Below are positions 3,856-57,062 of a DNA stretch of 64,000 bases, in pieces. The stretch lies in NCBI GenBank assembly GCA_009692945.1, contig SHYD01000001.1, positions 11,898 through 75,897 of the forward strand, written 5' to 3'. Source of the stretch: Dehalococcoidia bacterium (GTDB lineage: Bacteria; Chloroflexota; Dehalococcoidia; SHYD01). The notes under the pieces are model-generated. The model did not search any database. It was not told the origin of the DNA and worked only from the letters and a program-made list of their open reading frames with translations. Numbering within the stretch: position 1 is the first letter of the stretch; each line of letters opens with the position of its first letter. Position numbers and translations under genes: made by a program.

Positions 3856-4204
3856 GCAGTGTCAGGGGTTCGGGGGTATGAGCCACTCCCCCCACCCCAG
3901 GAAAAAAGAGGAGAATTCTCTGCTGGGGGCACCCCATAGGAGTGGGCAGATTTCTGGTCAGACAACCTCGGCGGCTGTACTTCCCACCCACCCACCCATT
4001 TTGTTTGTGTGTGGGGACACCCCGCACCCCGGCAGAAGGGGCTGCGCCCCCTCTGCACACCCCCCGTCCTGGAACCCCCATCCAGGCATGAATTCAAAAG
4101 ATGCCCACTCCTATGGGGGCACCCCCACGCCCCCGGCAGAGGGCTGTCGCCCTCGTGCACTCCCACTTCTGAGCCCGGCCGCCCTCAACAGTGAACTCTT
4201 ACGG
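3856..4204. repeat. Mosaic GC-rich palindromic intergenic repeat, copy A
   Basis: Shares modules with 9 other copies: CCCCCGAACCCCTGACACTG end, GAGAATTCTC box, CCCATAGGAGTGGGCA box, (CCCA)4 tract, GTGTGGGGACACCCCGCACCCCGGCAGAAGGGGC hairpin module, GGCAGAGGGCTGTCGCCCTCGTGCACTCCCACTTCTGAGCCCGG module, and terminal CCCTCAACAGTGAACTCTTACGG. Confidence 0.8.
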
Positions 4205-4336
4205 CTGCCGGTCGTAGTAGGGCGAGCCGCATTTTTCGGGTTATAGTGGGAGAAACCCCATCGAGGTGCTCTGCTGATCGACATCGGCTGGTTTTCCACC
4301 GGGCGCGGGCCGGCCTCACGCGCCCTGCTGGCTGCG

Positions 4337-5128
4337 GTGTGGGAAGCGATCGAGCGGGGAGAACTTGACCTCCGGCTGCGCTTCGTGTTCTGCAACCGTG
4401 AGCGGGGCGAATCCGAAGAAACCGATCGGTTCCTCGACCAGGTCGAGGGCTACGGCATTCCGCTGAGCACGCTATCCTTCGCCCGGTTTCGGGCCGAGCG
4501 CAGCGGCCGGGGCATGGGACTGAACCACGAGGCTTTCGCGGATTGGCGAGTGCAGTACGACCGGGCGGTCATCGACCTCTTGCCTGACCAGGCTCCGGCG
4601 TTGGTGGTCCTTGCCGGCTACATGCTGGTGATGACTCCGGAGTTGTGTGGACATTTCACTTGCCTCAACCTGCACCCCGCCGCCCCCGGTGGCCCCGTGG
4701 GAACATGGCAGCAGGTCATCTGGCAGTTGATCGAAAGCGGCGCCGCCGAGTCCGGCATCTTCATGCACCTGGTGACCCCCGAACTGGATCGTGGACCGGT
4801 GGTGACCTATTGCCGCTATCCCGTGGTCTCGCCACACACCGCCGATGGCTGGCGCCAGGCCCAGGACGCAGCGCCGGGCTCGCTCCAGACCGGCTATGGC
4901 GAGGCGCTGCCGCTGTTCCAGCAGATCCGGGCACTGGGAGTGGCCAGGGAGTTGCCGCTGATTCTGGCGACGCTCAGGGCTTTCGGTGAAGGGCGGATTG
5001 AGGTGAGGGACGGGCGGCCGTGGGGCGCCGGCGGGACCCCCATCGACGGGATCGACCTGACGGGAGAGATCGAAGCGGCGTTGCCGCCGGCTCGGGCCGA
5101 GACCAGCGCCGATTCGCTGGACCGATGA
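4337..5128 (+). CDS. Formyltransferase-family protein (PurN/Fmt-like N-terminal domain)
   Basis: ..VVLAGYMLVMTPELCGHFTCLNLHPAAPGGPVG..MHLVTPELDRGPVV.. resembles the formyl_trans_N fold (NIHPSLLP.. and ..ELD.GP.. boxes). The first ATG/GTG is at 4337, but the conserved N-terminus (LLIDIGWFSTGRGPASRALLAAV) is open in-frame from 4247, so the true start probably lies upstream and may use a non-canonical codon. Confidence 0.6.
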   Translation: MWEAIERGELDLRLRFVFCNRERGESEETDRFLDQVEGYGIPLSTLSFARFRAERSGRGMGLNHEAFADWRVQYDRAVIDLLPDQAPALVVLAGYMLVMTPELCGHFTCLNLHPAAPGGPVGTWQQVIWQLIESGAAESGIFMHLVTPELDRGPVVTYCRYPVVSPHTADGWRQAQDAAPGSLQTGYGEALPLFQQIRALGVARELPLILATLRAFGEGRIEVRDGRPWGAGGTPIDGIDLTGEIEAALPPARAETSADSLDR

Positions 5129-5670
5129 ACCGGCCCGCCACGATCGCCTTCATCGCTGCGGGCTTGGTCGTGGCGGCGGCCGCCATCGCTCGACCATCGA
5201 GCAACACGGGACCGCCGCCCGCCGTCCAGTCGATCGCCACCGCCACGCCGCTGCCGGCGCCCACGCCAACCCTTGCCCCTGGAGTACGCATCCTCACCGA
5301 AGAGCAACTGAACCAACAGATAGGGCAGGCCATGCAGCCGCGGGCCGGAGCCGTTCCTTTTCGGGACGTCCGCGTCGCACTCCTGGGCGATGGCAAGGTC
5401 GCACTGACCGGGGTGACGGCAGTGGCGGGGAGCGAGGTCCAGGTCCAGGTTTCGCTGGGGGTCCAGATGGCCCGCGGCGTCCTGAACATCGACATTCTCG
5501 GGGCGCAGGCCGGCGTCCTGCCGGTACCGGCAGGACTGGCCGAGGCGCTGGCCACCCAGGCGGCCCAGGCCGCAGGCCTGCCCGGCCTTAAGGGGATCGC
5601 ACTGCCACCTGAAGTCGAGGCCGTCACCGTGCGTCAGGGGGCCGTGATCATTCGGATGGCGGCCCGGTAG
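5125..5670 (+). CDS. Hypothetical membrane-anchored protein (N-terminal TM helix, Pro/Ala-rich linker)
   Basis: MNRPATIAFIAAGLVVAAAAIA.. begins at an ATG overlapping the upstream stop (ATGA). GC3-rich coding look. No recognisable domain. The longer six-frame ORF from 5020 has an Arg-rich junk N-terminus. Confidence 0.45.
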   Translation: MNRPATIAFIAAGLVVAAAAIARPSSNTGPPPAVQSIATATPLPAPTPTLAPGVRILTEEQLNQQIGQAMQPRAGAVPFRDVRVALLGDGKVALTGVTAVAGSEVQVQVSLGVQMARGVLNIDILGAQAGVLPVPAGLAEALATQAAQAAGLPGLKGIALPPEVEAVTVRQGAVIIRMAAR

Positions 5671-5732
5671 GGAGCGGCCGGGATCAAAAATAGGGCCGTA
5701 TGCCGGCCCCATTTTTTGTAAATTGGGTTGGA

Positions 5733-7028
5733 TCAGGCGTGCGCCTTGCGGATCTCCCCCTCAGACTCGTCGTTGCGGCTGGCCCGAGTCAGGAGCAGCG
5801 GCGGCGTCCGTTTGTGAATGGTATCCCCGCTCACGATGCACTTCTGCACGTCGCCCCGCGAGGGGATTTCATACATGATGTCCATCAGGGTTTCCTCCAT
5901 GATGGAGCGCAGGCCCCGGGCGCCGGTTTTGTGCAGCAGCGCTTCTTCAGCAGCGGCCTCCAGCGCCTCCGGTTGGAAGATCAGTTCGACATGGTCCAGC
6001 GCAAAGAAGCGTTGATACTGCTTGATCACAGCGTTCTTCGGCTCGACGAGGACTCTAAGCAGCGCCTCCTTGTCCAACGCCTCCAGGGAGACGCTGGTGG
6101 TGAGGCGGCCCACGAATTCTGGGATGAGACCGTACTGCATCAGGTCGTCCGGCGTGACCAGGCTGAGGACGTCATTTTCGGCCTGATGCTTCCCGTCGGC
6201 AGCCGTGGGGGCAGGCTTGAACCCGAGGGCGCTCACCCCGGTGCGGCGTTGCACCATGCGATCGAGGCCCTCGAAGGCGCCGCCGCAGATGAACAGGATG
6301 TTGGCCGTGTTCAATTGCAGGAAATCCTGGTGCGGATGCTTCCTGCCCCCCTGGGGTGGCACGTTGGCGATGCAACCCTCGATGATCTTTAGCAGCGCCT
6401 GCTGCACGCCCTCACCCGACACATCCCGGGTGATGGACGGATTGGCGCCCTTGCGGGCGATCTTATCGATTTCGTCGATGTAGATGATGCCCCGTTCGGC
6501 CCGGGAGATGTCGAAATCCGCCGCCTGGATGAGGCGGAGCAGGATATTTTCGACATCTTCACCGACGTAGCCCGCCTCGGTCAGTGAGGTGGCATCAGCG
6601 ATGCAGAAGGGGACGTCCAGTATCTTGGCCAGCGTGCGGGCCAGCAGGGTCTTACCGCACCCCGTTGGCCCGATGAGCAGCAAATTGCTCTTTTCAAGTT
6701 CGACGTCGTTCGCCGAATGTCCGACGTTCGCCGTGCGTTTATAGTGGTTGTAAACGGCAACACTGAGGACCTTCTTGGCGCGGTCCTGGCCAACGACGTA
6801 TTCACTCAGCAGTTCGAATATCCGCTTGGGGGTCGGGAGCTTGTTCGAGTCGGCCGCGGCGCGGACCGTGCGGCCCGACTCCTCATCGATGATCTCCCGG
6901 CACAACTCGACACATTCGTCACAGATGTAAACGGCTCCGGGCCCGGCAATGAGCCGCCGCACCTGGTCCTGGCTCTTACCGCAAAACGAACAGTGATACT
7001 GGAGTCGCGCGCCCCGGTTCGTTGGCAT
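5733..7028 (-). CDS. clpX: ATP-dependent Clp protease ATP-binding subunit ClpX
   Basis: N-terminal zinc ribbon [28 protein letters not shown], Walker A GPTGCGKT, ..IYIDEIDKI... Lies downstream of clpP. Confidence 0.95.
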
Positions 7029-7090
7029 TTGGTTCCTTCTCCGCCGAGCCGAATGTTGCTACTTCGCCGAGAGACGTCCGCGTGCGGAGG

Positions 7091-7702
7091 TCAGACCGTA
7101 GCGCCTTCCCTGGTGAGAATTTCGTCCACCAGACCGTACTCCCTGGCCTGTTCCGAGTTCAGGTAAAAGTCACGGTCAGTGTCGCGGATGATCCGTTCCA
7201 TGGGCTGCCCGGTGCGCTGGCTGAGGATGTTGCGGAGGATCTCCTGGTTGCGCAGGATCTCCCGAGCGGCGATCTCAATGTCCGAGGCCTGGCCGGTGGC
7301 GCCGCCTCGGGCTTGGTGCATGTGCACCGTGGCGTTCGGCAGGGCGTACCGCTTACCCTTGGCGCCGGCGCACAGCAGGACCGTGGCCATGCTGGCAGAC
7401 ATCCCCACACAGATGGTGGAGACCTCGGGCCGGATCAGCTGCATCGTGTCGTAAATGGCCAGGCCAGCCGTGATGACGCCGCCCGGACTGTGGATGTAGA
7501 GCGAGATGTCTTTATCTGGGTCCTCTCGATCCAGGTAGAGCAACTGCGCGACGATCAGGTTCGCGATCGTGTCGTCGATCGGCGTTCCGAGAAAAATGAT
7601 GCGCTCCCGCAGCAGCAGCGAAAAGATGTCGAAAGAGCGTTCGCCACGGGCCCCGCTCTCAATGACCATCGGGACATAATTCATAGCTTGGGTACTGTTC
7701 AT
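7091..7702 (-). CDS. clpP: ATP-dependent Clp protease proteolytic subunit ClpP
   Basis: ..ERIIFLG..IYLYINSPGG.. analog ([22 protein letters not shown]), catalytic Ser/His/Asp context. 203 aa. Confidence 0.95.
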
Positions 7703-7766
7703 GCCTGGCCTTTTCCTATGTGATGTGTTGGTTCATTCAACCGGCGCCATACTGTGACGATCCCCG

Positions 7767-9137
7767 CTACGCGGGCGCCGCGGCGGCCTCTGGCTCCGAA
7801 GACTCGTTCGCAGCGGCAGCTTCAGGCTCATCGGCCGTGGGAGGGGGTGGGTCCACTTCCACCGAGGTGCTGGTGAGATCGAAGAGCCGCTGCAGGGATT
7901 TTCGGGTCATCAAGGTGTCCATCAGCGCGGCGCGGCGTTCCTCGCGCTGAAGGTACTGCCGGAACAGCGGTTGCTGATCCCCAGCGGAACCCACGAGCGT
8001 CTCGATTTCGGCGTCGATCTCCTCGGCGCCGACCTCAATCGCCTCGGCCCGTGCGAAATTCTGCAGGACCAGGCTGCGCACCACCCGCTTTTCGGCCTGT
8101 TCCCTGAAGCGCTCCTTGAACTCGACCATGGTCTGGCCCAGCACCTCGAGCACCTGGTCAATCCTGCCCTGAGGATCACGGGGGAGTGTCCGGTCGGTTT
8201 CGATAATATGCTCGATCTCGTGGTCGACCATCATGTCTGGAAATTCCAGCTTCGAAACAGCCGCCAACGCGTCGAGCATGGCGAGATCGTGGGCGGAGCG
8301 GGATTCGCGCTCCGACTGGGCCACCAGATTGCTCCGCACCTTGTCCAGCAGTTCCTGGAAGGTGTTGTACTCCGCGTCCACTGTCTTGGCGAACTCGTCG
8401 TCCAATGCCAGCTCGTGCTTCTCTTTGACCTCTTTGACGGTGACATTGAACTCAACCGTCTTGGCGGGGTCCTCCGGCAACGGCAGTACAAACTCCTTGG
8501 AAGCGCCCCTCTCGACCCCAATCAGGGCCTCTGCGAACTCGGGCACCGGTTCCCTGCGCCCGGCCGTCACAATATAGGTGGCGTCCGGCTGGTTGATGAA
8601 CGTCTCTTTGGCATCACCATTGAGCAGGGAACTTTCGATCCCGATGATCACCATGTCGCCGAACTCGATCGGGCGTTCGACGGGCTCCCAGGGGGTGTAG
8701 TTGGTCCGCAGTTGTTCGATTACTTCGTCCACCTTGGCATCGGTGACGCGGGGGACTTCCATGGTCAGCGAGACGGTCTTGTAATCACCGAGTTCCACCG
8801 TCGGCTCGATGGCCACCGTAGCCTTGAAGGAAACCTGGGGTTCCACTTCGAGGATTTCGAACTCTGGCCGGCCTAAGGCCGCGATGGATTGTTCTTGGAT
8901 CGCCTCGGTATAGGCCTCGGGTACGAGGATATCGAGAGCCTCTTCCAGCAGGGCGGCCTTGCCGACGAAGCGCTCCACCATGACCCGAGGGGCCTTGCCA
9001 CGGCGAAAACCGGGGATGTTGGTGCGGTTCACGATGCGCCGGTAGGCACGGTCGAGGGATTTTTCCAGGACGGTTGGCTCAATCTCGAATTGGAGCGCAA
9101 CCCGGCTTTTTTCCAATCGCTCAGTTGTTACCTTCAC
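7767..9137 (-). CDS. tig: Trigger factor
   Basis: MKVTTERLEKSRVALQFEIEP..FRRGKAPR.. ribosome-binding and PPIase/C-terminal domains, in canonical tig-clpP-clpX order. Low-complexity Pro/Ala/Glu C-terminal tail. Confidence 0.93.
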   Translation of the reverse strand: MKVTTERLEKSRVALQFEIEPTVLEKSLDRAYRRIVNRTNIPGFRRGKAPRVMVERFVGKAALLEEALDILVPEAYTEAIQEQSIAALGRPEFEILEVEPQVSFKATVAIEPTVELGDYKTVSLTMEVPRVTDAKVDEVIEQLRTNYTPWEPVERPIEFGDMVIIGIESSLLNGDAKETFINQPDATYIVTAGRREPVPEFAEALIGVERGASKEFVLPLPEDPAKTVEFNVTVKEVKEKHELALDDEFAKTVDAEYNTFQELLDKVRSNLVAQSERESRSAHDLAMLDALAAVSKLEFPDMMVDHEIEHIIETDRTLPRDPQGRIDQVLEVLGQTMVEFKERFREQAEKRVVRSLVLQNFARAEAIEVGAEEIDAEIETLVGSAGDQQPLFRQYLQREERRAALMDTLMTRKSLQRLFDLTSTSVEVDPPPPTADEPEAAAANESSEPEAAAAPA

Positions 9138-9269
9138 GAGTGTTCCACTACCTCCATGCGCGGATTATAGCATGGGGTCGTGGCTGGGAGGAAGGGAACT
9201 AACGCCTATCCGCCCGGCCGGATGGTCTGGGTGAGGCCGGCCATGGGCCGGAAGGGGGGCGCGCGGTGG

Positions 9270-10334: not shown

Positions 10335-10342
10335 GGATCGAC

Positions 10343-11296: not shown

Positions 11297-11307
11297 GGCT
11301 TGTCCGC

Positions 11308-12903: not shown

Positions 12904-12993
12904 GTTACGGACTCCTGTTCACCTACGTAGTGTCTCGTCAGACCGCATGGCGCGCCGGTCTCGACCATTCCGCTGCGTCTCGGGAACGCCTCC

Positions 12994-14891: not shown

Positions 14892-14967
14892 GCTTCCCCC
14901 CTTTTTGTCACGCTGGCATTGAGTATGAGTTCAGAATCAGGGGCCGGCCGCATGAACCACGCCCTCA

Positions 14968-15088
14968 CCCCCACAAATTGAGGAGCATTCTCGGTGGGGG
15001 CCACCCCCACGCCCCCGGCAGAGGGCTGCCGCCCCCGTGCACTCCCGCTCCTGAGCCCGATAGTACCCTCAATTGTGAACTCTTACGG
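14968..15088. repeat. Intergenic repeat, copy B (short form)
   Basis: GAGGAGCATTCTC box, then GGGGGCCACCCCCACGCCCCCGGCAGAGGGCTGCCGCCCCCGTGCACTCCCGCTCCTGAGCCCG, then CCCTCAATTGTGAACTCTTACGG terminus. Confidence 0.8.
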
Positions 15089-15140
15089 CCTCAATTATAG
15101 GGGAAGGGAAGCGACTCCAGCGTGCTATCATGAACCCGCG

Positions 15141-18867: not shown

Positions 18868-20178
18868 ATGTTGACCCGAGAAGATAACGAACTCATCTGC
18901 CGCACCGGACCCGGCACCCTCATGGGTGAACTGTGGCGGCGGTTCTGGGTACCGGCCCTCATGGCCTGGGAACTGCCGGAGCCGGACTGCGCCCCGGTGC
19001 GGGTCAGGCTGCTGAGCGAGGACATGATCGCCTACCGCGACAGCTCGGGCCGGGTGGGGTTGTTGGCTGCCAACTGCCCCCACCGCGGCGCCTCGCTGTT
19101 CTTCGGCCGCAACGAAGAGGACGGGCTGCGGTGTGTCTATCATGGCTGGAAGTTCGACCTCCAGGGCAATTGTGTCGACATGCCCAACGAGCCGGCCGAG
19201 AGCAATTTCAAGCACAAGATCAAGCACACCTCCTACCCCTGCATGGAACGGGCCGGCATCATTTGGACCTACATGGGGCCGAAGCACCTGGAACCGGAGA
19301 TGCCGCAACTCCCCTGGATGGCGCTGAACGATGACAGCCGGTACACGCTGAAGTTCCTGGTGGAGTGCAACTTCCTCCAGGCGATGGAGGGTGACATCGA
19401 CAACAGCCACGTCGCCTTCGCCCATGGGAAGATCGACCCGGACACCAGCAAGCCGTTCCTGGACCGGATGAACTTTGCCGGCGTCCGCATACCCGGGCAG
19501 CCGGCCACCCCGTATTACATCTCAGATAAGACCCCGCGTGGGATCATCAAAGACACCGAATACGGACTCATGATGGGCTGGCGCCGAACCCTCGACGAGG
19601 ACACCTATCTGTGGCACATCAACCACTGGTTCATGCCCCACTCCACGGTGATGGGCACCCTGAAGGGTGGGACGTTCCTGTCCAACATGCGGGTGCCGAT
19701 CGACGACGAGCATAGCTGGCAGTTCCGCATCAAGTGGAACACCTTCCGGCCGCTCTCCGAAGCCGAACTCCACGAGTACAAGCACGGCGGGACCATGTTT
19801 CCCGAACTGATCCCCGGCACCTTCCGCTGCGTCGAAAACCGGGACAACGACTATCTGGTCGACCGCGAGAAGCAGCGGACGTCGCTGGTAACCGGCATCA
19901 AGTCGCAGACGCAGCAGGACCGGGCGGTCAATGAACCGCCTCCCACCGGGCCCATCTACGACCGCTCCAAGGAGCATTTGGGAACGTCCGATGCGGTGAT
20001 CATTCAGATGCGGCGGACCTTCCTGCGCGCCGCACGCGCCCTAGCCAACGGCCAGGAGCCCTACGCTGCCCACCACGGCTCGATCTACGACGTGCGGCCC
20101 ATCGACCTCGATCTCAAAATGAACGTTCCCTTCGAAGAGGGAGCGCGCCAGTTCCTCTACGGCCACCGGGCGCGGTAG
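18868..20178 (+). CDS. Rieske [2Fe-2S] non-heme iron oxygenase, alpha-subunit-like (VanA/KshA/phthalate-dioxygenase type)
   Basis: Rieske CPHRGASL...CVYHGWKF. Mononuclear Fe site DNSHVAFAH (D-x2-H-x4-H). 436 aa. 38 nt after the SBP gene, so probably co-transcribed. Confidence 0.85.
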   Translation: MLTREDNELICRTGPGTLMGELWRRFWVPALMAWELPEPDCAPVRVRLLSEDMIAYRDSSGRVGLLAANCPHRGASLFFGRNEEDGLRCVYHGWKFDLQGNCVDMPNEPAESNFKHKIKHTSYPCMERAGIIWTYMGPKHLEPEMPQLPWMALNDDSRYTLKFLVECNFLQAMEGDIDNSHVAFAHGKIDPDTSKPFLDRMNFAGVRIPGQPATPYYISDKTPRGIIKDTEYGLMMGWRRTLDEDTYLWHINHWFMPHSTVMGTLKGGTFLSNMRVPIDDEHSWQFRIKWNTFRPLSEAELHEYKHGGTMFPELIPGTFRCVENRDNDYLVDREKQRTSLVTGIKSQTQQDRAVNEPPPTGPIYDRSKEHLGTSDAVIIQMRRTFLRAARALANGQEPYAAHHGSIYDVRPIDLDLKMNVPFEEGARQFLYGHRAR

Positions 20179-20190: not shown

Positions 20191-20240
20191 ACGTAAGACA
20201 GGGGGCAGGTCTGAGACCTGCCCCCTGTCTTACGTTTCAG
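20191..20240. terminator. Bidirectional intrinsic terminator (21-bp perfect stem)
   Basis: acgtaagacagggggcaggtc-tga-gacctgccccctgtcttacgt followed by TTTCAG. Sits between the convergent Rieske (+) and gyrA (-) genes. Confidence 0.8.
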
Positions 20241-27378: not shown

Positions 27379-27935
27379 GCAAGGAACTGCATACGATCGT
27401 CGCGTTGGTGGAAGACCGTCCGGGTGTGCTCAACCGTATCGTCAGCCGCTGGCGGCAGCGTGGCTTCAACATCGAGAGCCTCGCCGTCGGGCACTCCGAG
27501 ACTCCCGGGTTGTCCCGCATGACCTTCGTGGTGGACGCCGCCCACAACGATGTGGAGCAGGTGGTGAAGCAGGTGGATAAGCTGGTGGATATTGTCCACA
27601 TCGAGGACATCACCCACTTGGCCACCGTCAGCCGGGAACTGATCATGATCAAAGTGCGGTCAAACCCGGCGAACCGCAGCGCCATCCTTCAGATCGTGGA
27701 CATCTTCCGGGCCAACATCGTCGATGTGAGCACCGAGTCGCTCATCGTGGAGGCCACGGGCGACGAACAGAAGCTCGACTCGCTGGTGGAATTGCTGGAG
27801 GAGTTCGGCGTCATCGAACTGTGCCGCACTGGGCGGGTGGCGATGCAGCGGGGAGCAGAACGCGTCGGCCAGGACGAACCTCACCTGGTGCTGCCCCATC
27901 TCCACGGGGGACGGGCTCCGGGAGGGCTTTTCTAA
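27375..27935 (+). CDS. ilvN: Acetolactate synthase small (regulatory) subunit
   Basis: MSKELHTIVALVEDRPGVLNRIVSRWRQRGFNIESLAVG.. ACT domain. ATGA overlap with ilvB. Confidence 0.9.
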   Translation: MSKELHTIVALVEDRPGVLNRIVSRWRQRGFNIESLAVGHSETPGLSRMTFVVDAAHNDVEQVVKQVDKLVDIVHIEDITHLATVSRELIMIKVRSNPANRSAILQIVDIFRANIVDVSTESLIVEATGDEQKLDSLVELLEEFGVIELCRTGRVAMQRGAERVGQDEPHLVLPHLHGGRAPGGLF

Positions 27936-27974
27936 GCGACCCTCGGCCAGCCGTTGGGAGACCGAGCTATACTA

Positions 27975-28262
27975 GAGTCCCCGTGCAAGAGTTTAGACTC
28001 GGGATTCGGGCACGGGGGTGCAGGGGGCAAAGCCCTCCTGCCGGGGGACTGGGCATAGGAGTGGGCCCCTTTTTACTTCATGCCTGGATGAGGGCTTTGG
28101 GACGGGGGTGTACAGAGGGGGCGAAGCCCCTTCTGCCGGGGTGTGGGGTGTGCCCACACACAAACAAAGTGGGTGGGTGGGGGGTACAGCCTTGGAGGTT
28201 GTCCGAGGGGGAACACCCCCACTCCTCTGGGGACTGGGGGTGTTCCCCCAGAAACGGTCGAG
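27975..28262. repeat. Intergenic repeat, copy C
   Basis: Contains CATAGGAGTGGGC box, ..AGAGGGGGCGAAGCCCCTTCTGCCGGGGTGTGGGGTGTGCCCACACAC module (inverted orientation), GTGGGTGGGTGGGGGG tract, GGGGGAACACCCCCACTCC, GAAACGGTCGAGGAG. Confidence 0.75.
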
Positions 28263-28407
28263 GAGGCGCTCCGCGAACTTCAGGTGGTCTATGGCATGAT
28301 CTTGGAGGAGTTCGCTGAGGAGGGCAGAGCGTTACGGCCCCATACTACCGTGACGGCCGGCGCCCGCGAGCAATTCACTCAGTTTCGATAACCGGAAAGG
28401 AAGCAGC

Positions 28408-29411: not shown

Positions 29412-29535
29412 ACCACGACCAGGGCTGAGGGATGAAAGACCTCGGGGGCAGGCGTGCAGAGGGCGGCAGCCCTTTGCCGGGGGGGTTGGGGTGTCCCCAA
29501 GAACCAATTCCTTTTCTTTTTTCTGGGAGTGGCGC
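29412..29535. repeat. Intergenic repeat, copy D (short)
   Basis: GCAGAGGGCGGCAGCCCTTTGCCGGGGGGGTTGGGGTGTCCCC and CCTTTTCTTTTTTCTGGGAGTGG box; compare copies F and J. Confidence 0.7.
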
Positions 29536-29746
29536 AGCAGAACGGTCGAGCGTCGCTCCCCGCTACACTGAGGGTGGAGAACCAGGCCAGGAGGCGAACA
29601 ATGAGGACACACAGGGGGTTTAGCGTAGCTCCGCCGATGGTGGCGGGCTACGTGGCGCTCTGACCGTGGTGCTTGGTGCGGGCGGGCCACCGGCTGGTCC
29701 GCGAGGGGTCTTGGGCTGACATACCACGGTTAGAGGAGTTACCACC

Positions 29747-31287: not shown

Positions 31288-31515
31288 GAACGGCGCCGGC
31301 CGGGGCGGCAGCCCGCTGCCGGGGGAGTGGGGGTGGCCCCATAGGAGTGGGAACCTTTTCAGTGTGTGCCTGGGCGAGCTGTTCGAACACGGGGAGTGCA
31401 GAGGGGGCGAAGCCCCTGCTGCCGGGGTGTGGGGTGTCCCCACACACAAACGGCATGGGTGGGTGGGTGGGTGGGTGGGAGTGGCCCATACCCCCGAACC
31501 CCTGACACTGAATAG
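31288..31515. repeat. Intergenic repeat, copy E
   Basis: CGGGGCGGCAGCCCGCTGCCGGGGGAGTGGGGGTGGCCCCATAGGAGTGGG; GAGGGGGCGAAGCCCCTGCTGCCGGGGTGTGGGGTGTCCCCACACAC; (GGGT)5GGG; CCCCCGAACCCCTGACACTGAAT end. Confidence 0.8.
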
Positions 31516-31598
31516 AAACGCACCGGCCCTCTGGTTGTCAGGAATCGGGATTCCTGCCTATAATACCCACATCCCCTCCCGCGAGACTGGGGATCCTT

Positions 31599-34064: not shown

Positions 34065-34080
34065 CCGCCGGAATGCCAGC

Positions 34081-34122
34081 AAAAGAGACCGCAAGCGCGA
34101 AACGCTTGCGGTCTCTTTTGCT
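34081..34122. terminator. Bidirectional intrinsic terminator (17-bp perfect stem)
   Basis: aaaagagaccgcaagcg-cgaaa-cgcttgcggtctctttt. A/T runs flank both sides. Sits between acpP (+) and the convergent cox gene string (-). Confidence 0.8.
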
Positions 34123-34144
34123 GCAATCGCCGTGACCAAAAATC

Positions 34145-42887: not shown

Positions 42888-42959
42888 ATGAGTAAACCCG
42901 TAGCGGGGGATGGCCGCATTGTAGCACCGGCCCGATCGGGGCAGCAAGGCGAAGGCAGC

Positions 42960-43270
42960 ACCGTGAGAATTCACTGTTGAGGGGGTGCATGGCTCAGGAG
43001 TGGGAGTGCACAGCAGCCCCTCTGCCGGGGGAGCGGGGGCGCCCCTCACAGAGAATTCTCCTCTTTTTTCCTGGGGTGGAGGGAGTGGCTCATATCCCCC
43101 GAACCCCCGACACTGCTGTGAAAAGGCGGTGGCTCACCAGGAACAGCATCTCCTCCAGGGGTGTCCAGCGGGTCTCCCGCTGGCGGGGAGTGTGAGGGGT
43201 GTACCCTCACACTCCATCTCTTTGTTTCTCCTCCGGCAGGGAGGGGGCCAAGGGGGGCGTCCCGTCCGCC
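42960..43270. repeat. Intergenic repeat, copy F
   Basis: GTGAGAATTCACTGTTGAGGGGG terminus; GGCTCAGGAGTGGGAGTGCACAGCAGCCCCTCTGCCGGGGG; GAGAATTCTCCTCTTTTTTCCTGGGGTGGAGGGAGTGGCTCATATCCCCCGAACCCCCGACACTG; a G8 run near 43275. The 3-prime boundary is uncertain. Confidence 0.75.
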
Positions 43271-48302: not shown

Positions 48303-48336
48303 CAGAGTAACCGGGCGGGCGCTCAAAAGTAACACG

Positions 48337-48665
48337 CCGCTACGGAAGTAAGAGTTCACTGTTGAGGGGCGGCCGGGCTCAGGAGTGGGAGTGCACGAGG
48401 GCGGCAGCCCTCTGCCGGGGGCGTGGGGGCGCCCCCATAGGAGTGGGCAGGTTTCTCCTCGGACAACCTCGAAGGCTGTACTTCCCACCCACCCACCCAC
48501 CCATTTCGTTTGTGTGTGGGGACACCCCACACCCCGGCAGAAGGGGCGCGCCCCCCCTCTGAACACCCCGTCCTGAGGCCTCCATCCAGGCATAAACTCA
48601 ATCGGCGCCCGCTCCTATGGGGACACCCCCAAGCACCCCCGGCACAGGGCCGCCGCTCTGCACAC
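48337..48665. repeat. Intergenic repeat, copy G (long form)
   Basis: GTAAGAGTTCACTGTTGAGGGGCGG terminus; CGGGCTCAGGAGTGGGAGTGCACGAGGGCGGCAGCCCTCTGCCGGGGGCGTGGGGGCGCCCCCATAGGAGTGGGCA; (CCCA)5; GTGTGGGGACACCCCACACCCCGGCAGAAGGGGCGCGCCCCCCCTCTG; CCTATGGGGACACCCCCAAGCACCCCCGGCACAGGGCCG. Confidence 0.85.
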
Positions 48666-48699
48666 CCGCTCCCCGGATCTTCCCCGGATCGGGCGCTGA

Positions 48700-48728
48700 T
48701 TGACACGTCCTGGGTGCGATGCTAGTGT
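48700..48728 (+). promoter_or_regulatory. Putative sigma70 promoter for the chrB-domain gene (TTGACA-N17-TAGTGT)
   Basis: attgacacgtcctgggtgcgatgctagtgtg, about 70 nt upstream of the ATG at 48797. Confidence 0.45.
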
Positions 48729-48796
48729 GGGCCTCGCCTCGTCCGGTGTCAGACGAGGCGTCGCCACGAATGTTATGCCAACAAGGAGACCTCGCC

Positions 48797-49330: not shown

Positions 49331-49334
49331 GTAT

Positions 49335-49468
49335 TGGGAGCCGCGTGTTGGGGGACACCCCCACTCCCCCGGCAGAGGGCTGCCGCCCTCATGCACTCCC
49401 GCTCCTGAGCCCGATAGCGCCTCAATTGTGAACTCCTACCGTGCATGCACTCCCACTTCTGAGCCCGG
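49335..49468. repeat. Intergenic repeat, copy H (short)
   Basis: GGGGGACACCCCCACTCCCCCGGCAGAGGGCTGCCGCCCTCATGCACTCCCGCTCCTGAGCCCGATAGCGCCTCAATTGTGAACTCCTACCG, followed by a partial second module (..GCACTCCCACTTCTGAGCCCGGC). Confidence 0.8.
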
Positions 49469-49553
49469 CGAGGGCCGCATGGTACAATGGTTAATACCCC
49501 ATGTGAGCTGACCTACCATTATCGGCCGTCTGCGTCCGGCCCGGGAGCGCTGG

Positions 49554-50327: not shown

Positions 50328-50332
50328 CCTCC

Positions 50333-51166: not shown

Positions 51167-51174
51167 CAACCAAC

Positions 51175-51621
51175 ATGGTCCTCAACGCTCAGGAAATCCA
51201 GAAGATCATCCCCCACCGCTGGCCCTTCCTGCTGGTCGATAAGATACTCGAGTTGGAACCCGGCAAGAGCGCCGTCGGGCTGAAACAGGTATCCGCGGGC
51301 GAAATCTACTTCCAGGGCCACTTCCCGGGACAACCCATCATGCCGGGGGTGCTGATCGTCGAAGCGCTGGCCCAGGTTGGGTCGGTGGCCCTCCTGAGCA
51401 GCCCCGAGCACCGCGGCAAGATCGGACTGTTCGCCGGGATCGACCGCTTCCGATTCCGCCGTCCGGTGGTCCCCGGCGACACCCTCCGCTTGGAAGTCAC
51501 CCTCACCAAGCTCCGCGGCGCGGTTGGCAAGGGGACCGGCAGGGCAGAGGTGGACGGACAGGTGGTGGCGGAAGGGGAACTGCTCTTCGCCATCGCCTCG
51601 CCCCAGAACCTCGGGACCTAG
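51175..51621 (+). CDS. fabZ: 3-hydroxyacyl-ACP dehydratase
   Basis: ..[41 protein letters not shown].. hot-dog fold, FabZ signature. 148 aa. Confidence 0.92.
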
Positions 51622-51639
51622 GGCCGGGGACCCGATCCC

Positions 51640-52770
51640 GTGGAGCGGCTTAGGGAATGGGTCATCACCCTCGTCTGTTTGGTCCTCCGGTGGCTCTTCA
51701 CCCTCATAATCCCTCCCCACCCCGGTTCAACTCCCCAAAAGATCCTGGTCATCAAGCCCTGCTGTCTGGGCGACACCCTCATGGCGACTCCAACGCTCGC
51801 CGCGCTCCGTGCAGAATGGCCGGACGCCACCATCGTGGTCGCCACGAGCAACTGGGCCCGGCCCGCAATCGAGAACCACCCGGCCATCGACTCCTTCATT
51901 GACTGCGCTCCTACGCCCCAAGGTGGGGCTGGACCGCTCCTGGAGACTTGGCGGCTGGCCCAGCGGGTCCGGAGGGGGGATTTCGATCTGGCGGTTGTAC
52001 TCGACCGGTCTCCCGTGGTCAGCCTCATCCCGTTTCTTGCCGGGATCCCCTCCCGCTCAGGGATCGACAGCGCTGGACGCGGGTTCTCCCTCACCAAGCG
52101 GGTGCCGGCATTACCGCTGAGACACGAGGCCGACCTCTACCTCGACGTCGCCCGCGCGGCGGGGTGCCACCCCGACGCAGCGGCCCTAACCTTTTTCCCC
52201 ACCGGCGAAGACCGGGCGTGGGCGGCAGACGCCCTGCCCAAGGGCGAGTGGGTTGCGGTCCACCCGGCCGGCGGGGTGAACCCGGGGAGTGCACTGCCCG
52301 GCAAGCGCTGGCCCTCCCACGGCTTCAGGGCGCTGGCCGAGCGCCTGCTGGACCGGGGGTACGGGGTGGTGCTGTTGGGCGGACCGGGTGACTACCCGTT
52401 CACTCAGGAGATCGCCGCGCTCTTACCGGCCCATGTCCGCACCCACGTTTACGACTTCGCGGGACGTTCCACTTTTGGGCAGACGGCGGCGTTGCTTGAA
52501 CGCTGCCGTTTGCTCGTGGGGAACGACACCGGCGTGATGCACCTCGCCGTCGCCGTGGCCACCCCCGTTGTCGCCGTGTTCGGACCCTCCAAACCGCTGG
52601 TCTACGGACCGTACCATTCCTCACAATCCCTCGTGGTGCACCACGAGGACCAATGCGGCCACTGCCTCTTCCGCGGCGGGCTTGTCACCGACTGCCGGAA
52701 CCAGTTCGCCTGCATGGGCGCCGCATCCGTGGACGAGGTGACCGCCGCCGCGCAAGCGCTGATGCGCTAG
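51640..52770 (+). CDS. Glycosyltransferase family 9 (heptosyltransferase-like), copy 1
   Basis: ..KILVIKPCCLGDTLMATPTLAALR..; ..GNDTGVMHLAVAVATPVVAVFGPS... 376 aa. Confidence 0.8.
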   Translation: MERLREWVITLVCLVLRWLFTLIIPPHPGSTPQKILVIKPCCLGDTLMATPTLAALRAEWPDATIVVATSNWARPAIENHPAIDSFIDCAPTPQGGAGPLLETWRLAQRVRRGDFDLAVVLDRSPVVSLIPFLAGIPSRSGIDSAGRGFSLTKRVPALPLRHEADLYLDVARAAGCHPDAAALTFFPTGEDRAWAADALPKGEWVAVHPAGGVNPGSALPGKRWPSHGFRALAERLLDRGYGVVLLGGPGDYPFTQEIAALLPAHVRTHVYDFAGRSTFGQTAALLERCRLLVGNDTGVMHLAVAVATPVVAVFGPSKPLVYGPYHSSQSLVVHHEDQCGHCLFRGGLVTDCRNQFACMGAASVDEVTAAAQALMR

Positions 52771-52794
52771 GCCAGCGGCGCAGCACAACAACTC

Positions 52795-52990
52795 GCCGCA
52801 CACACAAGAGTTCACTCTTGAGTGAACGCGGCAGGGTTGCCACACAGACAAACGAACGCGGTGGAAACTTCTCGCAGAGCTCGAAGAGTATCGATGCGGT
52901 GCGCGCGGCGGCTCGTTACTGTTCGAGCGAAGCGAGAATCTACGCCGCCCCGACTGTGATCCATTCGAATGTGAACTCTTACGCTAAGGC
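52795..52990. repeat. Intergenic repeat, copy I (divergent interior, recognisable termini)
   Basis: Left end AAGAGTTCACTCTTGAGTGAAC, right end GAATGTGAACTCTTACG. Interior lacks the canonical G/C modules. Confidence 0.5.
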
Positions 52991-53017
52991 CCCACGCCGC
53001 CCTGCCGATAGTAGCTG

Positions 53018-54624
53018 GTGCAGGATCGAAATCGATCGCCAGCGCCCGGAGGGAACGTGGGATTACTCCGCACACTCAAGCAGTCCAAACTGGTGCTCCC
53101 CTACACGATTATCAGCGTCTGCCTGATTGCCGTGATGGCAGCCGCCATTCAATGGAATTCGAACAGCGCCGTCGAGCATTCGGTGGTCAAGTTGGCCGAA
53201 GCCACCACTGCGATGCAGGTCGCCCAGTTCAACCTGCAGCTGGCCATGGACCCCGCATTCGCAGACGGAGGGAACGATGGCGAGCTCACCGCGGCCGACC
53301 TAGCCAACGTCGAAGTCTTGGGCCGCATCATTCCCCGCATGACGTACGGGCTCGGCATCGTCCAGATCAACATCTTCTCCACCGGCGGGCGGACCCTGTA
53401 CAGCTCCGACGGCGCCATGCTAGGCCAACAGAGGGGTACCAGCGGCGGTTTTCAGCGCGCCCTGCAAGGCCAAGTATCGACTGCCTTGGAACGGGGAGCG
53501 GCCGCTACCGATGATCGCCGTGAAGGCGAGGGCGGCGACATCGTGGAGTTGTACCTGCCGCTCTACCGCAACCCTCTGTCCACAGAAGGGGGTCGAGCGA
53601 TGGTTGGGGGGTGTTGGGACTCTTTCAAGATGTCCACGACAAGGTCGCTCTCATCGAGCAGTCCAGCTCAGAGCAGTTGGCGCCAACCGTCGCCATGATA
53701 GCCGCATTAATGACCACGCTCTTGGCCTTTACGATCCGGGGTGAACGGATGATCGTACGCTCCAGCGCGCGTGAAGAGCGGGCGGAAGGGGAAGCCCGAA
53801 TGCTGGAAACCGTCCAAGACCACAACCGGCACCTGGAGATCATGAACTGGGAACTGGAACAGCGCACCGTTCAAGCGGAGCAGGCATCAAAAGCAAAATC
53901 TGAATTCCTGGCCAACATGTCCCACGAGTTGCGGACCCCGCTCAACGGCATCATCGGTTTCGCCGACGTGCTGCTGGCCGAGATGTTGGGGCCGCTGAAC
54001 GAGGACCAGACCGACGGCGCCAAAGAGATCAAGGATAGCGGAAGGCACCTCCTCAAACTGATCAGCGATGTGCTCGACATCGCCAAGATCGAAGCCGGCA
54101 AAATGACCGTCGACATGGTGGCCTGCGACCTCGGCAACACACTGGCGGAGGCCGCCCGTACGGTCGCACCGATGGCCGAGACCAAGGCGATGATCCTCCA
54201 ATTCACCATTGCTGAAGGCCTGCCACAAGCCCTTGGGGACCCGTTGCGGATCAAACAGGTGCTGCTCAATCTGTTGAGCAACGCCGTGAAATTCACGGGT
54301 CCCGAGGGCTCGATCTCGGTGGAGGTTTCCTACAGGCCCGGCGAAATCCTGGTTACGGTGGCCGACAATGGCCCCGGCATCCCCGAAGAGATGCAGGCAC
54401 GCCTCTTCCAAAAGTTCGAACGGGTGGAGAAGCGCAACCCCGGTCAATTGAATGAAGGCACCGGGCTGGGCCTGGCCCTGGCGCGGGAACTGGTCCACCT
54501 CCAGGGAGGTCACCTCTGGTACACCACCCAAGTGGGGGCGGGCAGCACGTTCTATTTCACGCTGGCCGCCGCAGAGGCGCAATCGCACACGGGTACTAGG
54601 ACACTGCTGGCAGTGGGAGGCTGA
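53018..54624 (+). pseudogene. Sensor histidine kinase (periplasmic sensor, 2 TM, HisKA + HATPase_c), frameshifted
   Basis: Two overlapping ORFs in different frames (53018-53698 and 53611-54624). Sensor with TM1 LVLPYTIISVCLIAVMAAAI. Kinase part ..[14 protein letters not shown].. (H box), N/G1/G2 boxes (..LLSNAVKFT.., ..DNGPGIP.., ..GTGLGLA..). The frames join if one G is added to the G6 run at 53606-53611 (..EGGRAMVGG|[14 protein letters not shown]..). Confidence 0.8.
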
Positions 54625-54626
54625 GC

Positions 54627-55040
54627 ATGGAAGCGAATGCCGGATACGGTCATGGACCTGGGGCCGGGAACCCCACCATCCTGGTGGTGGAGGACAATCC
54701 TCGCAACATGAAATTGATGAGAATCATGTTGCAGGCCAAAGGTTAGGCAACAATTGAGGCGGTCGATGGCGAAAACGGCCTCACCCTGCTGGGGCAGTCG
54801 TCCTGCACCCTCGTGGTGCTGGATATCCAGCTTCCGGGGATGTCCGGACTCGACGTGGCGCGTGCAGTGCGCGCCAACGAGACCACCAGGACCATTCCGA
54901 TCCTGGCGGTCACCGCCTTCGCTATGGTGTCTGAGCGGGAAGCTGCTTTGTCCGCCGGGGGCTCGGAGTACATGACCAAACCGATCGACATGCCCCGGTT
55001 TCTTGAAACGGTGCAGGAGATGATCGGGGCGGGAGCCTGA
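54627..55040 (+). pseudogene. Single-domain response regulator (CheY-like receiver) interrupted by an in-frame TAG
   Basis: MEANAGYGHGPGAGNPTILVVEDNPRNMKLMRIMLQAKG-TAG-ATIEAVDGENGLTLLGQSSCTLVVLDIQLPGMSGLDVAR...YMTKPID.. is a complete receiver domain (phospho-Asp in VVLDIQLPGMSG). The TAG at 54744-54746 replaces the conserved aromatic residue of the KG[YF] motif. TAG is used as a genuine stop by at least 8 genes in this window. Confidence 0.75.
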
Positions 55041-55042
55041 CC

Positions 55043-56809
55043 ATGCCGGCCGCCGCACGTCACCTGAACCAACCCGCGCCCGCGCCGATGAGCGAGCTGT
55101 TCGCCCGGGATCGGAACCTGGCAGCGCTGATTCATGGGTTCTCCGACCTCACGGTGGTCATCGCCGAGGACGGCAGCGTGCGCTATGCAAGCCACGGTCT
55201 CGAAAAGCACCTTGGCCGCCGGCCAGATGCATTCTTGGGCGCCGATTTCTTCTCATTGTTTCACCCGGAGGACGAACCGCTCGCACGCGTTGTGGTGCTC
55301 GAACCAAGCAGCGATGCCGAAGACCGGTTGATCATGGCGTCCCGCCTCCAGCACGCAGGCGGCGCATGGCGGTTTATGGAACTGGCCAGCGCCAACCTGC
55401 TGGATGACCCGAACCTCGAAGGGCTCGTGGTCAACCTGTGGGACGTCACGGAGCGCAAAGAGTATGAAGGGCGCCTCGAGCGGATGGCTTACTCGGACAC
55501 CCTCACGGGACTGCCTAACCGGGCCAGGTTCGCCACCGTCCTGCAGCGTGCCTGTGATCGCACTGCACGGACCGGCCGCGGCATGGCGGTGATGTTCATA
55601 GACCTGGACCGGTTCAAGATCGTCAACGACACGCTGGGACACCAGGCTGGCGATGAGGTGCTGAAGGAAGCGGCAGCCCGATTGCGGCAATCGGCGCCAC
55701 CAGAGGCCCTGGTGGCGCGCTACAGCGGCGACGAGTTCGCCATCATCCTGGAACAGACGAACACCAACGTTGACCCCCGTGAGGTGGCCGCAGCGATATT
55801 GCGTCGCATCGTCGCCCCTATCGACCTCGGCGTCGCCGAGGCCCACATCGGCGCCAGCATCGGGGTCGCCCACAGCGGTCCAGGGCTGCTGCAGCCGCGC
55901 GACCTGCTGCGCGCGGCGGACACGGCGGCCTACCGGGCCAAGGCCCAGGGCCGGGGGCAACTCGTGGAGTACGACGCGGCTATCGATGCGCTCCCGATGG
56001 AACGCATCCAACAAGAGGCCGAACTGCGCCGAGCGGTCGAAGGCTTTGAGTTCTCGATACATCTTGAGCCCATCTTTGAACTGTGCGGCAACGGCCCGGT
56101 GGCCGTGGATGCCACCGCTTGGTGGAACCACCCTACCAAAGGCCTGCTGGCGCCGCCCACGTTCAGGCCGCTGCTGGAAGAGATCGGTCTGACCGCAGAG
56201 GTGGACCTGGAAACGCTGAGGCGGAGCGCGCTTACGTTCCAACGCTGGCGCAGCGTCGTTCCTGAAACCAGCCTGATGACGCTGACGACCCACGTCTCCC
56301 AACGCCTTTTCAACGAGCCGGACTTTGTTGAAAAGGTTCAGGAGATTCTGGCCACCTCCGGCCTGCCCCCAGCAGATTTGAGGCTGAGCATGGACCAAGC
56401 CGTGCTGGCGTTGAACCAGAACCAATGGGCTGACAAGGTGCTGACCCTGCGTTTGCTGGGCATCAAGTTGGCGTTGGAACAGTTCGGTTCCGGCGCCAGC
56501 CCGCTTGGCGGGTTGAAACACGCCCCCATCGACCAGGTCAGGGCGGATTCGACGCTCATCGAACGGCTCCCTCACGATTCATGGGATACCGCGTTCCTGG
56601 GGGCCATGGTTGCCGTAGCCGAGGCGCTGAGGATGGATGTGGTGGTGCAGGGTATCGCGGACGCCGGCCAACTGGCAGCCGTCATCGAGCAGGGGTGCCG
56701 CTTTGGCCAGGGCCCGTTCTGGGGCGGTGCCCTGGAATCCGAGGCAGCGCTCGAATGGATCCGCCGGAAACGGTACCGCCGCCCCTCCCGGAATTCGGAC
56801 CACCGCTAA
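55043..56809 (+). CDS. PAS-GGDEF-EAL signalling protein with degenerate catalytic motifs
   Basis: PAS-like N-terminus. GGDEF domain with ..RYSGDEF.. (SGDEF instead of GG[DE]EF). EAL domain where the signature is ..VDATAWWNHP (DAT instead of EAL) but downstream boxes are present (..LEQFGSG.., ..VVQGIADAGQ..). 588 aa. Starts 2 nt after the receiver stop. Confidence 0.8.
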   Translation: MPAAARHLNQPAPAPMSELFARDRNLAALIHGFSDLTVVIAEDGSVRYASHGLEKHLGRRPDAFLGADFFSLFHPEDEPLARVVVLEPSSDAEDRLIMASRLQHAGGAWRFMELASANLLDDPNLEGLVVNLWDVTERKEYEGRLERMAYSDTLTGLPNRARFATVLQRACDRTARTGRGMAVMFIDLDRFKIVNDTLGHQAGDEVLKEAAARLRQSAPPEALVARYSGDEFAIILEQTNTNVDPREVAAAILRRIVAPIDLGVAEAHIGASIGVAHSGPGLLQPRDLLRAADTAAYRAKAQGRGQLVEYDAAIDALPMERIQQEAELRRAVEGFEFSIHLEPIFELCGNGPVAVDATAWWNHPTKGLLAPPTFRPLLEEIGLTAEVDLETLRRSALTFQRWRSVVPETSLMTLTTHVSQRLFNEPDFVEKVQEILATSGLPPADLRLSMDQAVLALNQNQWADKVLTLRLLGIKLALEQFGSGASPLGGLKHAPIDQVRADSTLIERLPHDSWDTAFLGAMVAVAEALRMDVVVQGIADAGQLAAVIEQGCRFGQGPFWGGALESEAALEWIRRKRYRRPSRNSDHR

Positions 56810-57062
56810 CGGGCCGACCCAAGCTCGGGAGTGGGAGTGCACGAGGGCGGCGGCCCTCTGCCGGGGGAGTGGGGGTGCCCCCATAGGAGTGGGCACCTTT
56901 TGAATTCGTGCTGGATGTGGATTCCAGGACGGGGGGGGGTATGCAGAGGGGGCGCAGCCCCTTCTGCCGGGGCGTGGGGTGTCCCCCACAAAGAATTCTC
57001 CTCTTTTTCTGGGGTGGGGGCGTGGCTCACACCGCCTGATCCCCTAACACTGAATCGATACA
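56800..57062. repeat. Intergenic repeat, copy J
   Basis: CTCGGGAGTGGGAGTGCACGAGGGCGGCGGCCCTCTGCCGGGGGAGTGGGGGTGCCCCCATAGGAGTGGGCACC; G9 run; GCAGAGGGGGCGCAGCCCCTTCTGCCGGGGCGTGGGGTGTCCCCCACAAAGAATTCTCCTCTTTTTCTGGGGTGGGGGCGTGGCTCACACCGCCTGATCCCCTAACACTGAATCG. Confidence 0.85.

Follow-up and report, generated by a model that had tools for sequence, protein, structure and literature searches.

Repeats between the genes of a Dehalococcoidia contig

We analyzed a 64,000-nucleotide stretch of contig SHYD01000001.1 (NCBI GenBank assembly GCA_009692945.1, positions 11,898 to 75,897 of the forward strand; hereafter the window), which comes from an uncultured Dehalococcoidia metagenome-assembled genome (MAG) and has a GC content of 60-68%. 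Ten intergenic sites, numbered c1 to c10 in order of position, carry a family of short modular repeats that we interpret, with an estimated probability of about 0.85, as miniature inverted-repeat transposable elements (MITEs), that is, non-coding, non-autonomous DNA transposons. Together the repeats cover about 2.1 kb or about 3.3% of the window, against the approximately 4% given by an earlier description made without database searches (the sequence-only reading). Every copy lies between open reading frames (ORFs) with Pfam domains, and the domains fall outside the copies, which bears out the earlier placement of all copies between genes, including inside the ilv-leu string. The neighbors are ordinary housekeeping ORFs (leuCD, pyrD, clpXP, tig, opp, aspS, gyrA, ilvDBNC, leuA, yceD, the cox operon, ribDE, dcd, a sigma factor, ymdB, fabZ and glycosyltransferases).

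Self-BLASTN and a repeat search revealed matches of 40-90 nt at 85-95% identity, both direct and inverted, that join nine of the ten sites (self-matching regions 3848-4209, 14952-15089, 28014-28249, 29441-29532, 31302-31519, 42954-43116, 48348-48673, 49349-49469 and 56823-57061). The 21-mer GTAAGAGTTCACTGTTGAGGG occurs four times at up to three mismatches, compared with 0.00 expected from 100 shuffles, and an nhmmer profile of the short copies recovers the same window sites and no others. The family is therefore real and lies essentially where the sequence-only reading had placed it, and BLAST with the individual modules recovered every module listed there. Several details of that description change. 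Nine of its ten copies are linked to one another, while the one at 52804-52982 has only its termini in common with the rest and an unrelated interior. The copy given as 14968-15088 extends left to 14923, and of the supposed single copy at 42960-43270, positions 43120-43270 belong to a second hairpin repeat family. Three of the listed elements (29419-29533, 31302-31516 and 56819-57065) are truncated or decayed, and the CCCCCGAACCCCTGACACTG box, once taken as a separate module, is part of one element end.

Searches for known equivalents agreed with the earlier statement that no named element matches. No tRNA or tmRNA was found in a scan of the window, so the repeats are not tRNA-derived. The whole window gave no Rfam 15 match at the gathering score, and two copies searched at E<=1 gave only two sub-threshold chance matches. 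BLASTN of c1 and c9 against 72,556 plasmids returned no match; in viral contigs the end pattern had two AT-rich chance matches and the core pattern none. A full-text literature search on MITEs in Chloroflexi and Dehalococcoidia revealed no published description of the family among its top results. The repeat family is thus previously undescribed, but the kind of element is well known. When a 23-nt core pattern was scanned against 185,579 species genomes, a single contig matched, from a Lake Baikal Dehalococcoidia MAG (L001), and it contains three short-form copies within 8 kb. A metagenome scan with the core pattern added three further independent loci; four of its nine matches (L006, L008, L011 and L012) were discarded as chance matches in coding sequence.

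Architecture of the element

The basic unit is about 160 nt long, with short forms of 157-167 nt represented by c2, c6 and all copies from other genomes. Across the family, copies span 105-355 nt, well within the size of about 600 bp below which MITEs fall, and are overlapped only by spurious GC-rich ORFs. The unit is bounded by imperfect 21-bp terminal inverted repeats (TIRs) of the form GTAnGAGTTCA..., with the consensus GTAnGAGTTCAc..TtGAGGG at one end and an often more diverged second end, GTATCTATnCAGTGTCAGGGG. End A is the 21-mer given above, end B differs between subfamilies (GTATGAGTTCAGAATCAGGGG or GTATCTATGCAGTGTCAGGGG), and ends A and B of one element are diverged inverted repeats of each other. 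The TIR of the sequence-only reading is accordingly present, but the two ends of an element are not identical: GTAAGAGTTCAC... pairs with GTATGAGTTCAGAATCAGGGG or GTATCTATGCAGTGTCAGGGG. TIRs are found inside single elements in c2 and in the copies of L001, L007 and L010, and many window copies have lost one end.

Alignment of the short forms gives the order end A, GGCTCAGGAGyGGGAGTGCAC, twin hairpin H1, CAGAGAATTCTCCTCTTTTTTCC-GGGGTGGGGGGAGTGG and end B, with H1 consisting of GAGGGCGGCAGCCCTC followed by GGGGGnGTGGGGGTGCCCCC. The conserved core, GGGAGTGCAyGAGGGCGGCAGCCCTCTGCCGGGGGnGTGGGGGTGCCCCC, forms two adjacent GC hairpins, and a GAGAATTCTCC-T-run-GGGGTGGGG box lies 3' of it.

The long form (about 350 nt; 355 nt in c1) is the short unit with a segment of about 180 nt, Y, inside its second hairpin. 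The borders of Y are ATAGGAGTGGGCA and TGCCCACTCCTAT. Y is found within the second hairpin in every case, and 10-11 nt of the hairpin that it interrupts are duplicated in direct orientation on either side (GGGGTGCCCCC in c1, GGGGACTGGG in c3). Within Y lies H2, which duplicates the H1 region in diverged form, followed by ACACACAAAC and (GGGT)3-6. An alignment of H1 and H2 made to look for covariation in the core was out of register, and pair counts from it would be unreliable. The (GGGT)n/(CCCA)n run of Y varies from about 3 to 6 units (3983-3998, 28169-28181, 31456-31479 and 48484-48503) in the manner of a microsatellite, with slippage independent from copy to copy. Between c1 and c7 the host parts are inverted repeats (I1) and the Y parts direct repeats (D11-D13); Y is therefore present in both orientations.

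From junction sequences only, a mosaic history can be proposed. The long copies would descend from a one-off gain of Y in this lineage, through either nested insertion or a duplication with inversion. The composite may then have transposed and undergone inversion across the inverted Y borders, and later deletions between H1 and H2 or between G-runs, truncation and decay would have produced the remaining forms. Copies c5 and c10 look like deletion derivatives with junctions in paralogous G-rich stretches, and c3, c4, c5, c8 and c10 lack one or both ends.

Target duplications, an empty site and insertion polymorphism

All four TIR-bounded copies outside the window are flanked by 8-bp direct duplications, three of them perfect and one matching at seven of eight positions. 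More specifically, the flanks are CCGCCGGC/CCGCCGGC at L001:4205-4367 (8/8), GAGACGGC/GAGACGGC at L001:778-941 (8/8), CGGTAGCT/CGGTAGCT at the L010 copy (8/8) and AAAAAATA/AAGAAATA at the L007 copy (7/8). The background chance in these sequences is 8.5e-5 for 8/8 and 7e-4 for at least 7/8. The duplicated 8-mers CCGCCGGC, GAGACGGC, CGGTAGCT and AAnAAATA are unrelated in sequence and contain no common target motif.

An empty site was found for c2. L021, which is syntenic with the window and encodes an AspS 85% identical to that of the window, reads TATAA-TCATGCT-AGCGTGA with a single copy of the target, compared with TATAA-TTGAGGCC-(c2)-TCAATGCC-AGCGTGA on the minus strand of the window. The sequences flanking c2, GGCATTGA at 14915-14922 and GGCCTCAA at 15087-15094, agree at 5/8 positions (chance about 0.03) and are a decayed target duplication.

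The family is also polymorphic at the same loci, the window's copies being missing from relatives whose flanking proteins are 79-94% identical. In relatives with an 88-89% identical IlvC, some on Mb-sized contigs, six stretches of 15-21 kb contain no family member and have gaps of 83 bp and 163 bp at the c3 and c4 positions. L014 and L016 have only an 83-bp gap at the c3 position, and c4 is missing as well. The groundwater locus L019, with a 94% identical IlvC, has an intact hicB-like gene at the c3 position, a deletion remnant of c4 at the orthologous site, and a solo hairpin core at L019:913-967 where the window has nothing. Neither c7 nor c8 is present at the orthologous loci of L023 and L024 (YmdB 92% identical). 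Conversely, L021 contains a mosaic copy in the oppC-tig gap (L021:6800-7130), at which the window has none. From this presence and absence among relatives we conclude that the family is mobile, or recently was; gain and decay of copies can both be seen. The window's density, about one copy per 6 kb, reflects a lineage-specific burst, for which there is precedent; the closest sampled relatives have no copies at the same loci.

One short-read contig bears on how such copies assemble. L002 (Logan SRR8561390, 1940 bp), the only short-read contig with the exact LeuA of the window, starts in c4 (5-29) and ends in c5 (1849-1897), as expected for a collapsed multi-copy repeat. The MITEs are therefore points at which short-read assemblies of this organism break.

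The ten copies

Copy c1 (3848-4202, minus strand) is a full-length long form between the divergent pyrD and formyltransferase genes. On the minus strand its order is end A (4182-4202), M2, H1, Y (3936-4117, holding H2 and (GGGT)n), H1b', the B1/B2 box and end B (3848-3868). The intact short form c2 (14923-15086, minus strand, 164 nt; nhmmer 2e-47) lies between aspS and a hemN-like gene, and its ends, GTATGAGTTCAGAATCAGGGG and GTAAGAGTTCACAATTGAGGG, are identical at 15/21 positions.

Three plus-strand copies fall in the ilv-leu string. Copy c3 (27985-28249), between ilvN and ilvC, has a variant left end, GCAAGAGTTTAGACTCGGG, a variant H1 split by Y and no right end, and takes the place of the 5' half of a hicB-like gene. 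The 3' half of this antitoxin gene remains beside it as a remnant at 28252-28370, again between ilvN and ilvC; the corresponding stretch of L019 (1123-1341) holds an intact hicB-like ORF with a downstream hicA-like stretch. Copy c4 (29419-29533), between ilvC and leuA, is a decayed short form without recognizable ends, in which H1 and a B1-like box remain (profile 5e-17). Directly after the leuA stop codon, the 5'-truncated long form c5 (31302-31516) has the order H1, left border of Y, H2, (GGGT)6, B2 and end B, with a deletion from the (GGGT)n run to the B1 GGGGTGGGG run that removes the right half of Y.

Copy c6 (42963-43119, plus strand) is a short form of 157 nt that lies antisense to its two neighbors, dcd and a LonC-like gene (profile 1e-41), with the order end A, M2, H1 with a 5-nt deletion, B1, B2 and a degenerate end B. 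The second dispersed repeat, family 2, lies next to it at 43158-43210; it is unrelated and has a T-rich tail behind a double hairpin, GGGGTGTCCAGCGGG..CCCGCTGGC..GTGAGGGGTGTACCCTCAC. Family 2 was also found at L023:4574-4628, L024:2664-2718 and L010:8085-8139, with about 85% identity at non-orthologous loci. The palindromic long form c7 (48348-48664, plus strand), between a sigma-factor gene and a chrB_C gene, runs from end A through M2, H1 and Y, in the orientation opposite to that in c1, to an inverted degenerate H1/M2. Copy c8 (49335-49469, minus strand), between chrB_C and ymdB and antisense to both, is a 3'-truncated short form with end A (49419-49439), M2 and H1 (profile 2e-30), and also holds a 26-nt M2 fragment of another copy at 49444-49469.

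Copy c9 (52804-52982, 179 nt, no strand assigned) has end-A-type repeats on both sides, ACAAGAGTTCACTCTTGAG and GTAAGAGTTCACATTCGAA, around an interior of about 140 nt that is unrelated to the family and was found nowhere else among the sequences compared. It is a sister MITE with only its termini in common with the family. Copy c10 (56819-57065, plus strand), between a PAS-GGDEF-EAL gene and a GT9 gene, is a 5'-truncated long form with the order M2, H1, left part of Y, H2 joined directly to B1, B2 and end B.

These last two copies stand at the left (c9) and right (c10) edges of a 4.3-kb block (52771-57077) that comprises an unknown ORF, a histidine kinase, a small ORF and the PAS-GGDEF-EAL gene, between two GT9 genes. 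In the otherwise syntenic L025 the block is absent and the two GT9 genes are adjacent, with a gap of 160 bp. The outward ends of c9 and c10 are oriented correctly for a composite transposon, but the flanking 8-mers mismatch (CCGCACAC vs ACCTGGTG) and we rejected this candidate. It is conceivable, though improbable, that pairs of MITEs nevertheless move genes such as this signaling cassette.

Transcription context and other features of the window

Folding energies of the short form are close to those of shuffled sequences (z -0.6 and -1.6), and that of the long form is moderately lower (z -2.85). Scans with promoter and terminator consensus sequences found no site inside any copy, which leaves the idea of terminators or outward promoters without support. 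Housekeeping genes carry copies in their 5' leaders and in the spacers of their operons, with and against the direction of transcription; c3 to c5, for example, lie within or just after the ilvBN-ilvC-leuA string. Given these positions, both orientations and the lack of a terminator consensus, the elements are probably read through and co-transcribed as tolerated passengers, and a host function is not indicated. Copy c2 separates a TATAAT hexamer, conserved with L021, from the ribosome-binding site and start codon of aspS. No -35 element is recognizable upstream of this hexamer and the promoter scan gives no full consensus there, so that its reading as a promoter is only suggestive.

Outside the copies, a near-consensus sigma-70-type promoter, TTGTCA-18-TATAAT (11/12), lies at 31535-31564, 19 nt past the end of c5 and 35 nt before yceD. 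Two perfect long palindromes between convergent genes, ACGTAAGACAGGGGGCAGGTCTGAGACCTGCCCCCTGTCTTACGT at 20192-20236 and CAAAAGAGACCGCAAGCG..CGCTTGCGGTCTCTTTTG at 34077-34123, probably serve as bidirectional terminators and show no relation to the MITE modules. A conserved stem-loop at 29615-29661 (GGGGTTTAGCGTAGCTCCGCC...GGCGGGCTACGTGGCGCTCT), some 90 nt before leuA, does not belong to the repeat family and is near-identical in L014, L016 and L019 despite a diverged spacer; it has no Rfam match and may be a leucine-operon leader or attenuator.

The window further contains three paralogous Rieske/LigXa-C-like oxygenase genes (61369-62445, 62828-63970 and 18868-20178). Two of the paralogs stand in tandem and, with about 75% DNA identity, form the largest direct repeats in the window (D1, D2 and D10). 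Their presence suggests an aerobic, aromatic-degrading lifestyle for this Dehalococcoidia lineage.

Mobilization and alternative explanations

The MITE interpretation follows from the inverted ends, the duplication fixed at 8 bp, the empty site, the polymorphism of insertions and the absence of coding capacity. As the sequence-only reading had noted for the window, no transposase was found among about 50 window ORFs scanned with Pfam, nor was one found in L001 or L010. The sequence-only reading had named MITEs, repetitive extragenic palindromic (REP) sequences with bacterial interspersed mosaic elements (BIMEs), and Deinococcus small noncoding repeats (SNRs) as the obvious classes; of these MITEs fit, while REP/BIME and SNR find no support because such elements make no target duplications. 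A transposase encoded elsewhere would bind the terminal repeats and act in trans. Such an enzyme, of DDE type, inserts the element at a staggered 8-bp cut, the repair of which leaves the 8-bp direct duplication, as the observed duplications and the empty site show. The leading candidate for the mobilizer is the IS66 family of insertion sequences (ISs), either IS66 proper or the ISBst12 group, since IS66 combines ends beginning GTAA with 8-bp duplications; we put this attribution at roughly even odds. The ends of the window family are about 21 bp long and start with GTAAGAG in four window copies, but with GTAT, GTAG or GTAC in others. IS66 members have 20-30-bp inverted repeats starting GTAAGCG and 8-bp direct repeats (PMC11946415). 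ISDge4, of the single-ORF ISBst12 group with GTAAC... ends, has the end GTAACTGCTCAGCA and an 8-bp direct repeat (PMC12898284), and the inverted repeat of ISPsk01 (IS66), GTAAGCGTCCGG..., starts similarly to GTAAGAGTTCAC... in the window family (PMC12888890).

Several observations weigh against this picture. Only the sequence of the ends and the length of the duplication point to the transposase family; the ends vary at their fourth base (GTAA, GTAT, GTAG, GTAC) and read GAG at positions 5-7, compared with GCG in classic IS66. The search for an autonomous partner covered the end motif in the window and 20 loci, with about 60 ORFs scanned with Pfam; none with the same ends was found in the window, 25 loci, plasmids or viral contigs. 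Clean target duplications all come from other genomes. In the window none is clean: c2 matches at 5/8 positions and c1 at 4/8, c6 and c9 have none, and an offset scan for c1, c6 and c9 gave nothing above chance. The origin of Y would be compatible with nested insertion as well as with duplication and inversion. Finally, conservation is higher in the hairpin core than in the terminal repeats, and it is the core that survives in decayed copies, which is unusual for a purely selfish MITE. Selection or gene conversion could account for this. Part of it is ascertainment, as the search patterns lay in the core and remnants were detected through it.

Another DDE transposase, of the ISL3, IS256, IS6, IS1595 or an undescribed family, could instead mobilize the MITEs. 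The absence of a transposase from the scanned ORFs and the end GTAnGAG, which is not the canonical GTAAGCG, would allow this. Several IS families make 8-bp duplications; according to the ISfinder family table these include IS6, IS256, ISL3 and IS1595, but their ends begin with GG and not with GTA. A GTAA start combined with an 8-bp duplication is the signature of IS66 (PMC11946415, PMC12898284), and we regard a mobilizer from outside IS66 as possible, though the weaker candidate. The twin-hairpin core might also be more than cargo, namely a REP-like unit with its own selection or propagation, so that an IS66-type MITE and a hairpin-targeting Y would make up a two-layer parasitic system. The core could then have a host function at the RNA or DNA level or be the preferred target of the nested Y; we consider this elaboration improbable.

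More radically, the hairpin itself could be the mobile unit, as in REP/BIME-like or IS200/IS605-type palindromes moved as single-stranded DNA by a Y1/HUH transposase resembling the REP-associated tyrosine transposases (RAYTs), in which case the mosaics would be clusters of hairpins in alternating orientation. Such a scheme would suit a twin-hairpin core that is the most conserved part, that occurs alone (L019:913-967), that has a paralogous copy inside segment Y, and that forms clusters in both orientations without recognizable ends (L021:6800-7130; c7). Yet target duplications and terminal inverted repeats are both foreign to REP and IS200/IS605-type elements, and the 8-bp duplications beside inverted ends at all four intact external copies, together with the precise empty site, are at odds with it. 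No Y1 transposase was found in the window or the loci scanned. Solo hairpins and clusters can equally well be decayed or nested MITEs, as the c4 remnant in L019 illustrates, and we judge hairpin-based mobility very unlikely.

Least credible to us is that the copies are functional structured RNAs or regulatory sites kept by the host, whether a family of small RNAs, mRNA-stabilizing hairpins, terminators or attenuators. The copies are indeed intergenic, several lie in transcription units (c3 to c5 in the ilv-leu string, c2 between TATAAT and the aspS start) and their local hairpins are stable. Against this, there is no Rfam match at the gathering score and no credible one at E<=1, folding is near that of shuffles, and no terminator or promoter consensus lies inside the elements. 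Copies run both with and against transcription (c6 and c8 being antisense), the same loci are empty in relatives with 79-94% identical flanking proteins, and the evident terminators of the window (20192-20236 and 34077-34123) look different.

Significance

Read as MITEs, the repeats document a MITE burst in uncultured freshwater and groundwater Dehalococcoidia, a group in which mobile elements are poorly catalogued, and may be the first case in Chloroflexota of a MITE linked to IS66-type ends. They create long spurious ORFs (e.g., 2732-4246 and 27821-28318), which together with assembly breaks affect MAG quality and annotation. Copies in the ilv-leu string and the leader of aspS offer naturally occurring insertions for studying the tolerance of GC-rich hairpins in transcripts, and the insertion polymorphisms could serve as strain markers. 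We regard the overall value as modest.

Comparison with known systems

The window family resembles the IS66 family in its terminal inverted repeats (about 20-30 bp in IS66), in the GTAA start that four window copies have, and in the 8-bp target duplication. It differs in size, as IS66 elements are 1.4-3 kb long with a transposase gene and the window copies are 160-355 nt with none, and in its ends (GTAnGAG vs GTAAGCG). Its interior, a GC-rich twin hairpin, is not detectably related to any IS, and its host belongs to Chloroflexota, whereas most described IS66 members are from Proteobacteria.

With the REP/BIME sequences of Enterobacteria and Pseudomonas, which are RAYT-associated, the family has in common that its members are extragenic, GC-rich imperfect palindromes and form mosaics of hairpin units in both orientations with other short motifs. 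REP/BIME elements, however, are built on a single imperfect palindrome as the unit, have neither TIRs nor target duplications and are tied to a Y1 (RAYT) transposase, whereas the window family has both inverted repeats and duplications, and no RAYT gene was found in the window or the loci scanned. Deinococcus SNRs, which belong with the IS200/IS605-type palindromic repeats, are similar as GC-rich intergenic repeats of 100-200 nt with strong hairpins in a high-GC genome. Elements of the IS200/IS605 type have dissimilar ends with subterminal hairpins and insert 3' of a fixed tetra- or pentanucleotide with no target duplication; their mechanism is therefore excluded by the 8-bp duplications of the window family.

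Like the window family, Correia-type MITEs are dense in intergenic regions and include internally deleted length variants; they are often co-transcribed with their neighbors, as the window copies probably are too. Correia elements of Neisseria, RUP, MITEAba12 (PMC6382973) and cyanobacterial MITEs are also short, non-coding and TIR-bounded with a target duplication of fixed length. They differ from the window family in host lineage, show no sequence similarity to it, and make a TA or 9-bp duplication where the window family makes one of 8 bp. Compared with Correia elements, the window family has in addition a nested or invertible inner segment that carries a microsatellite.

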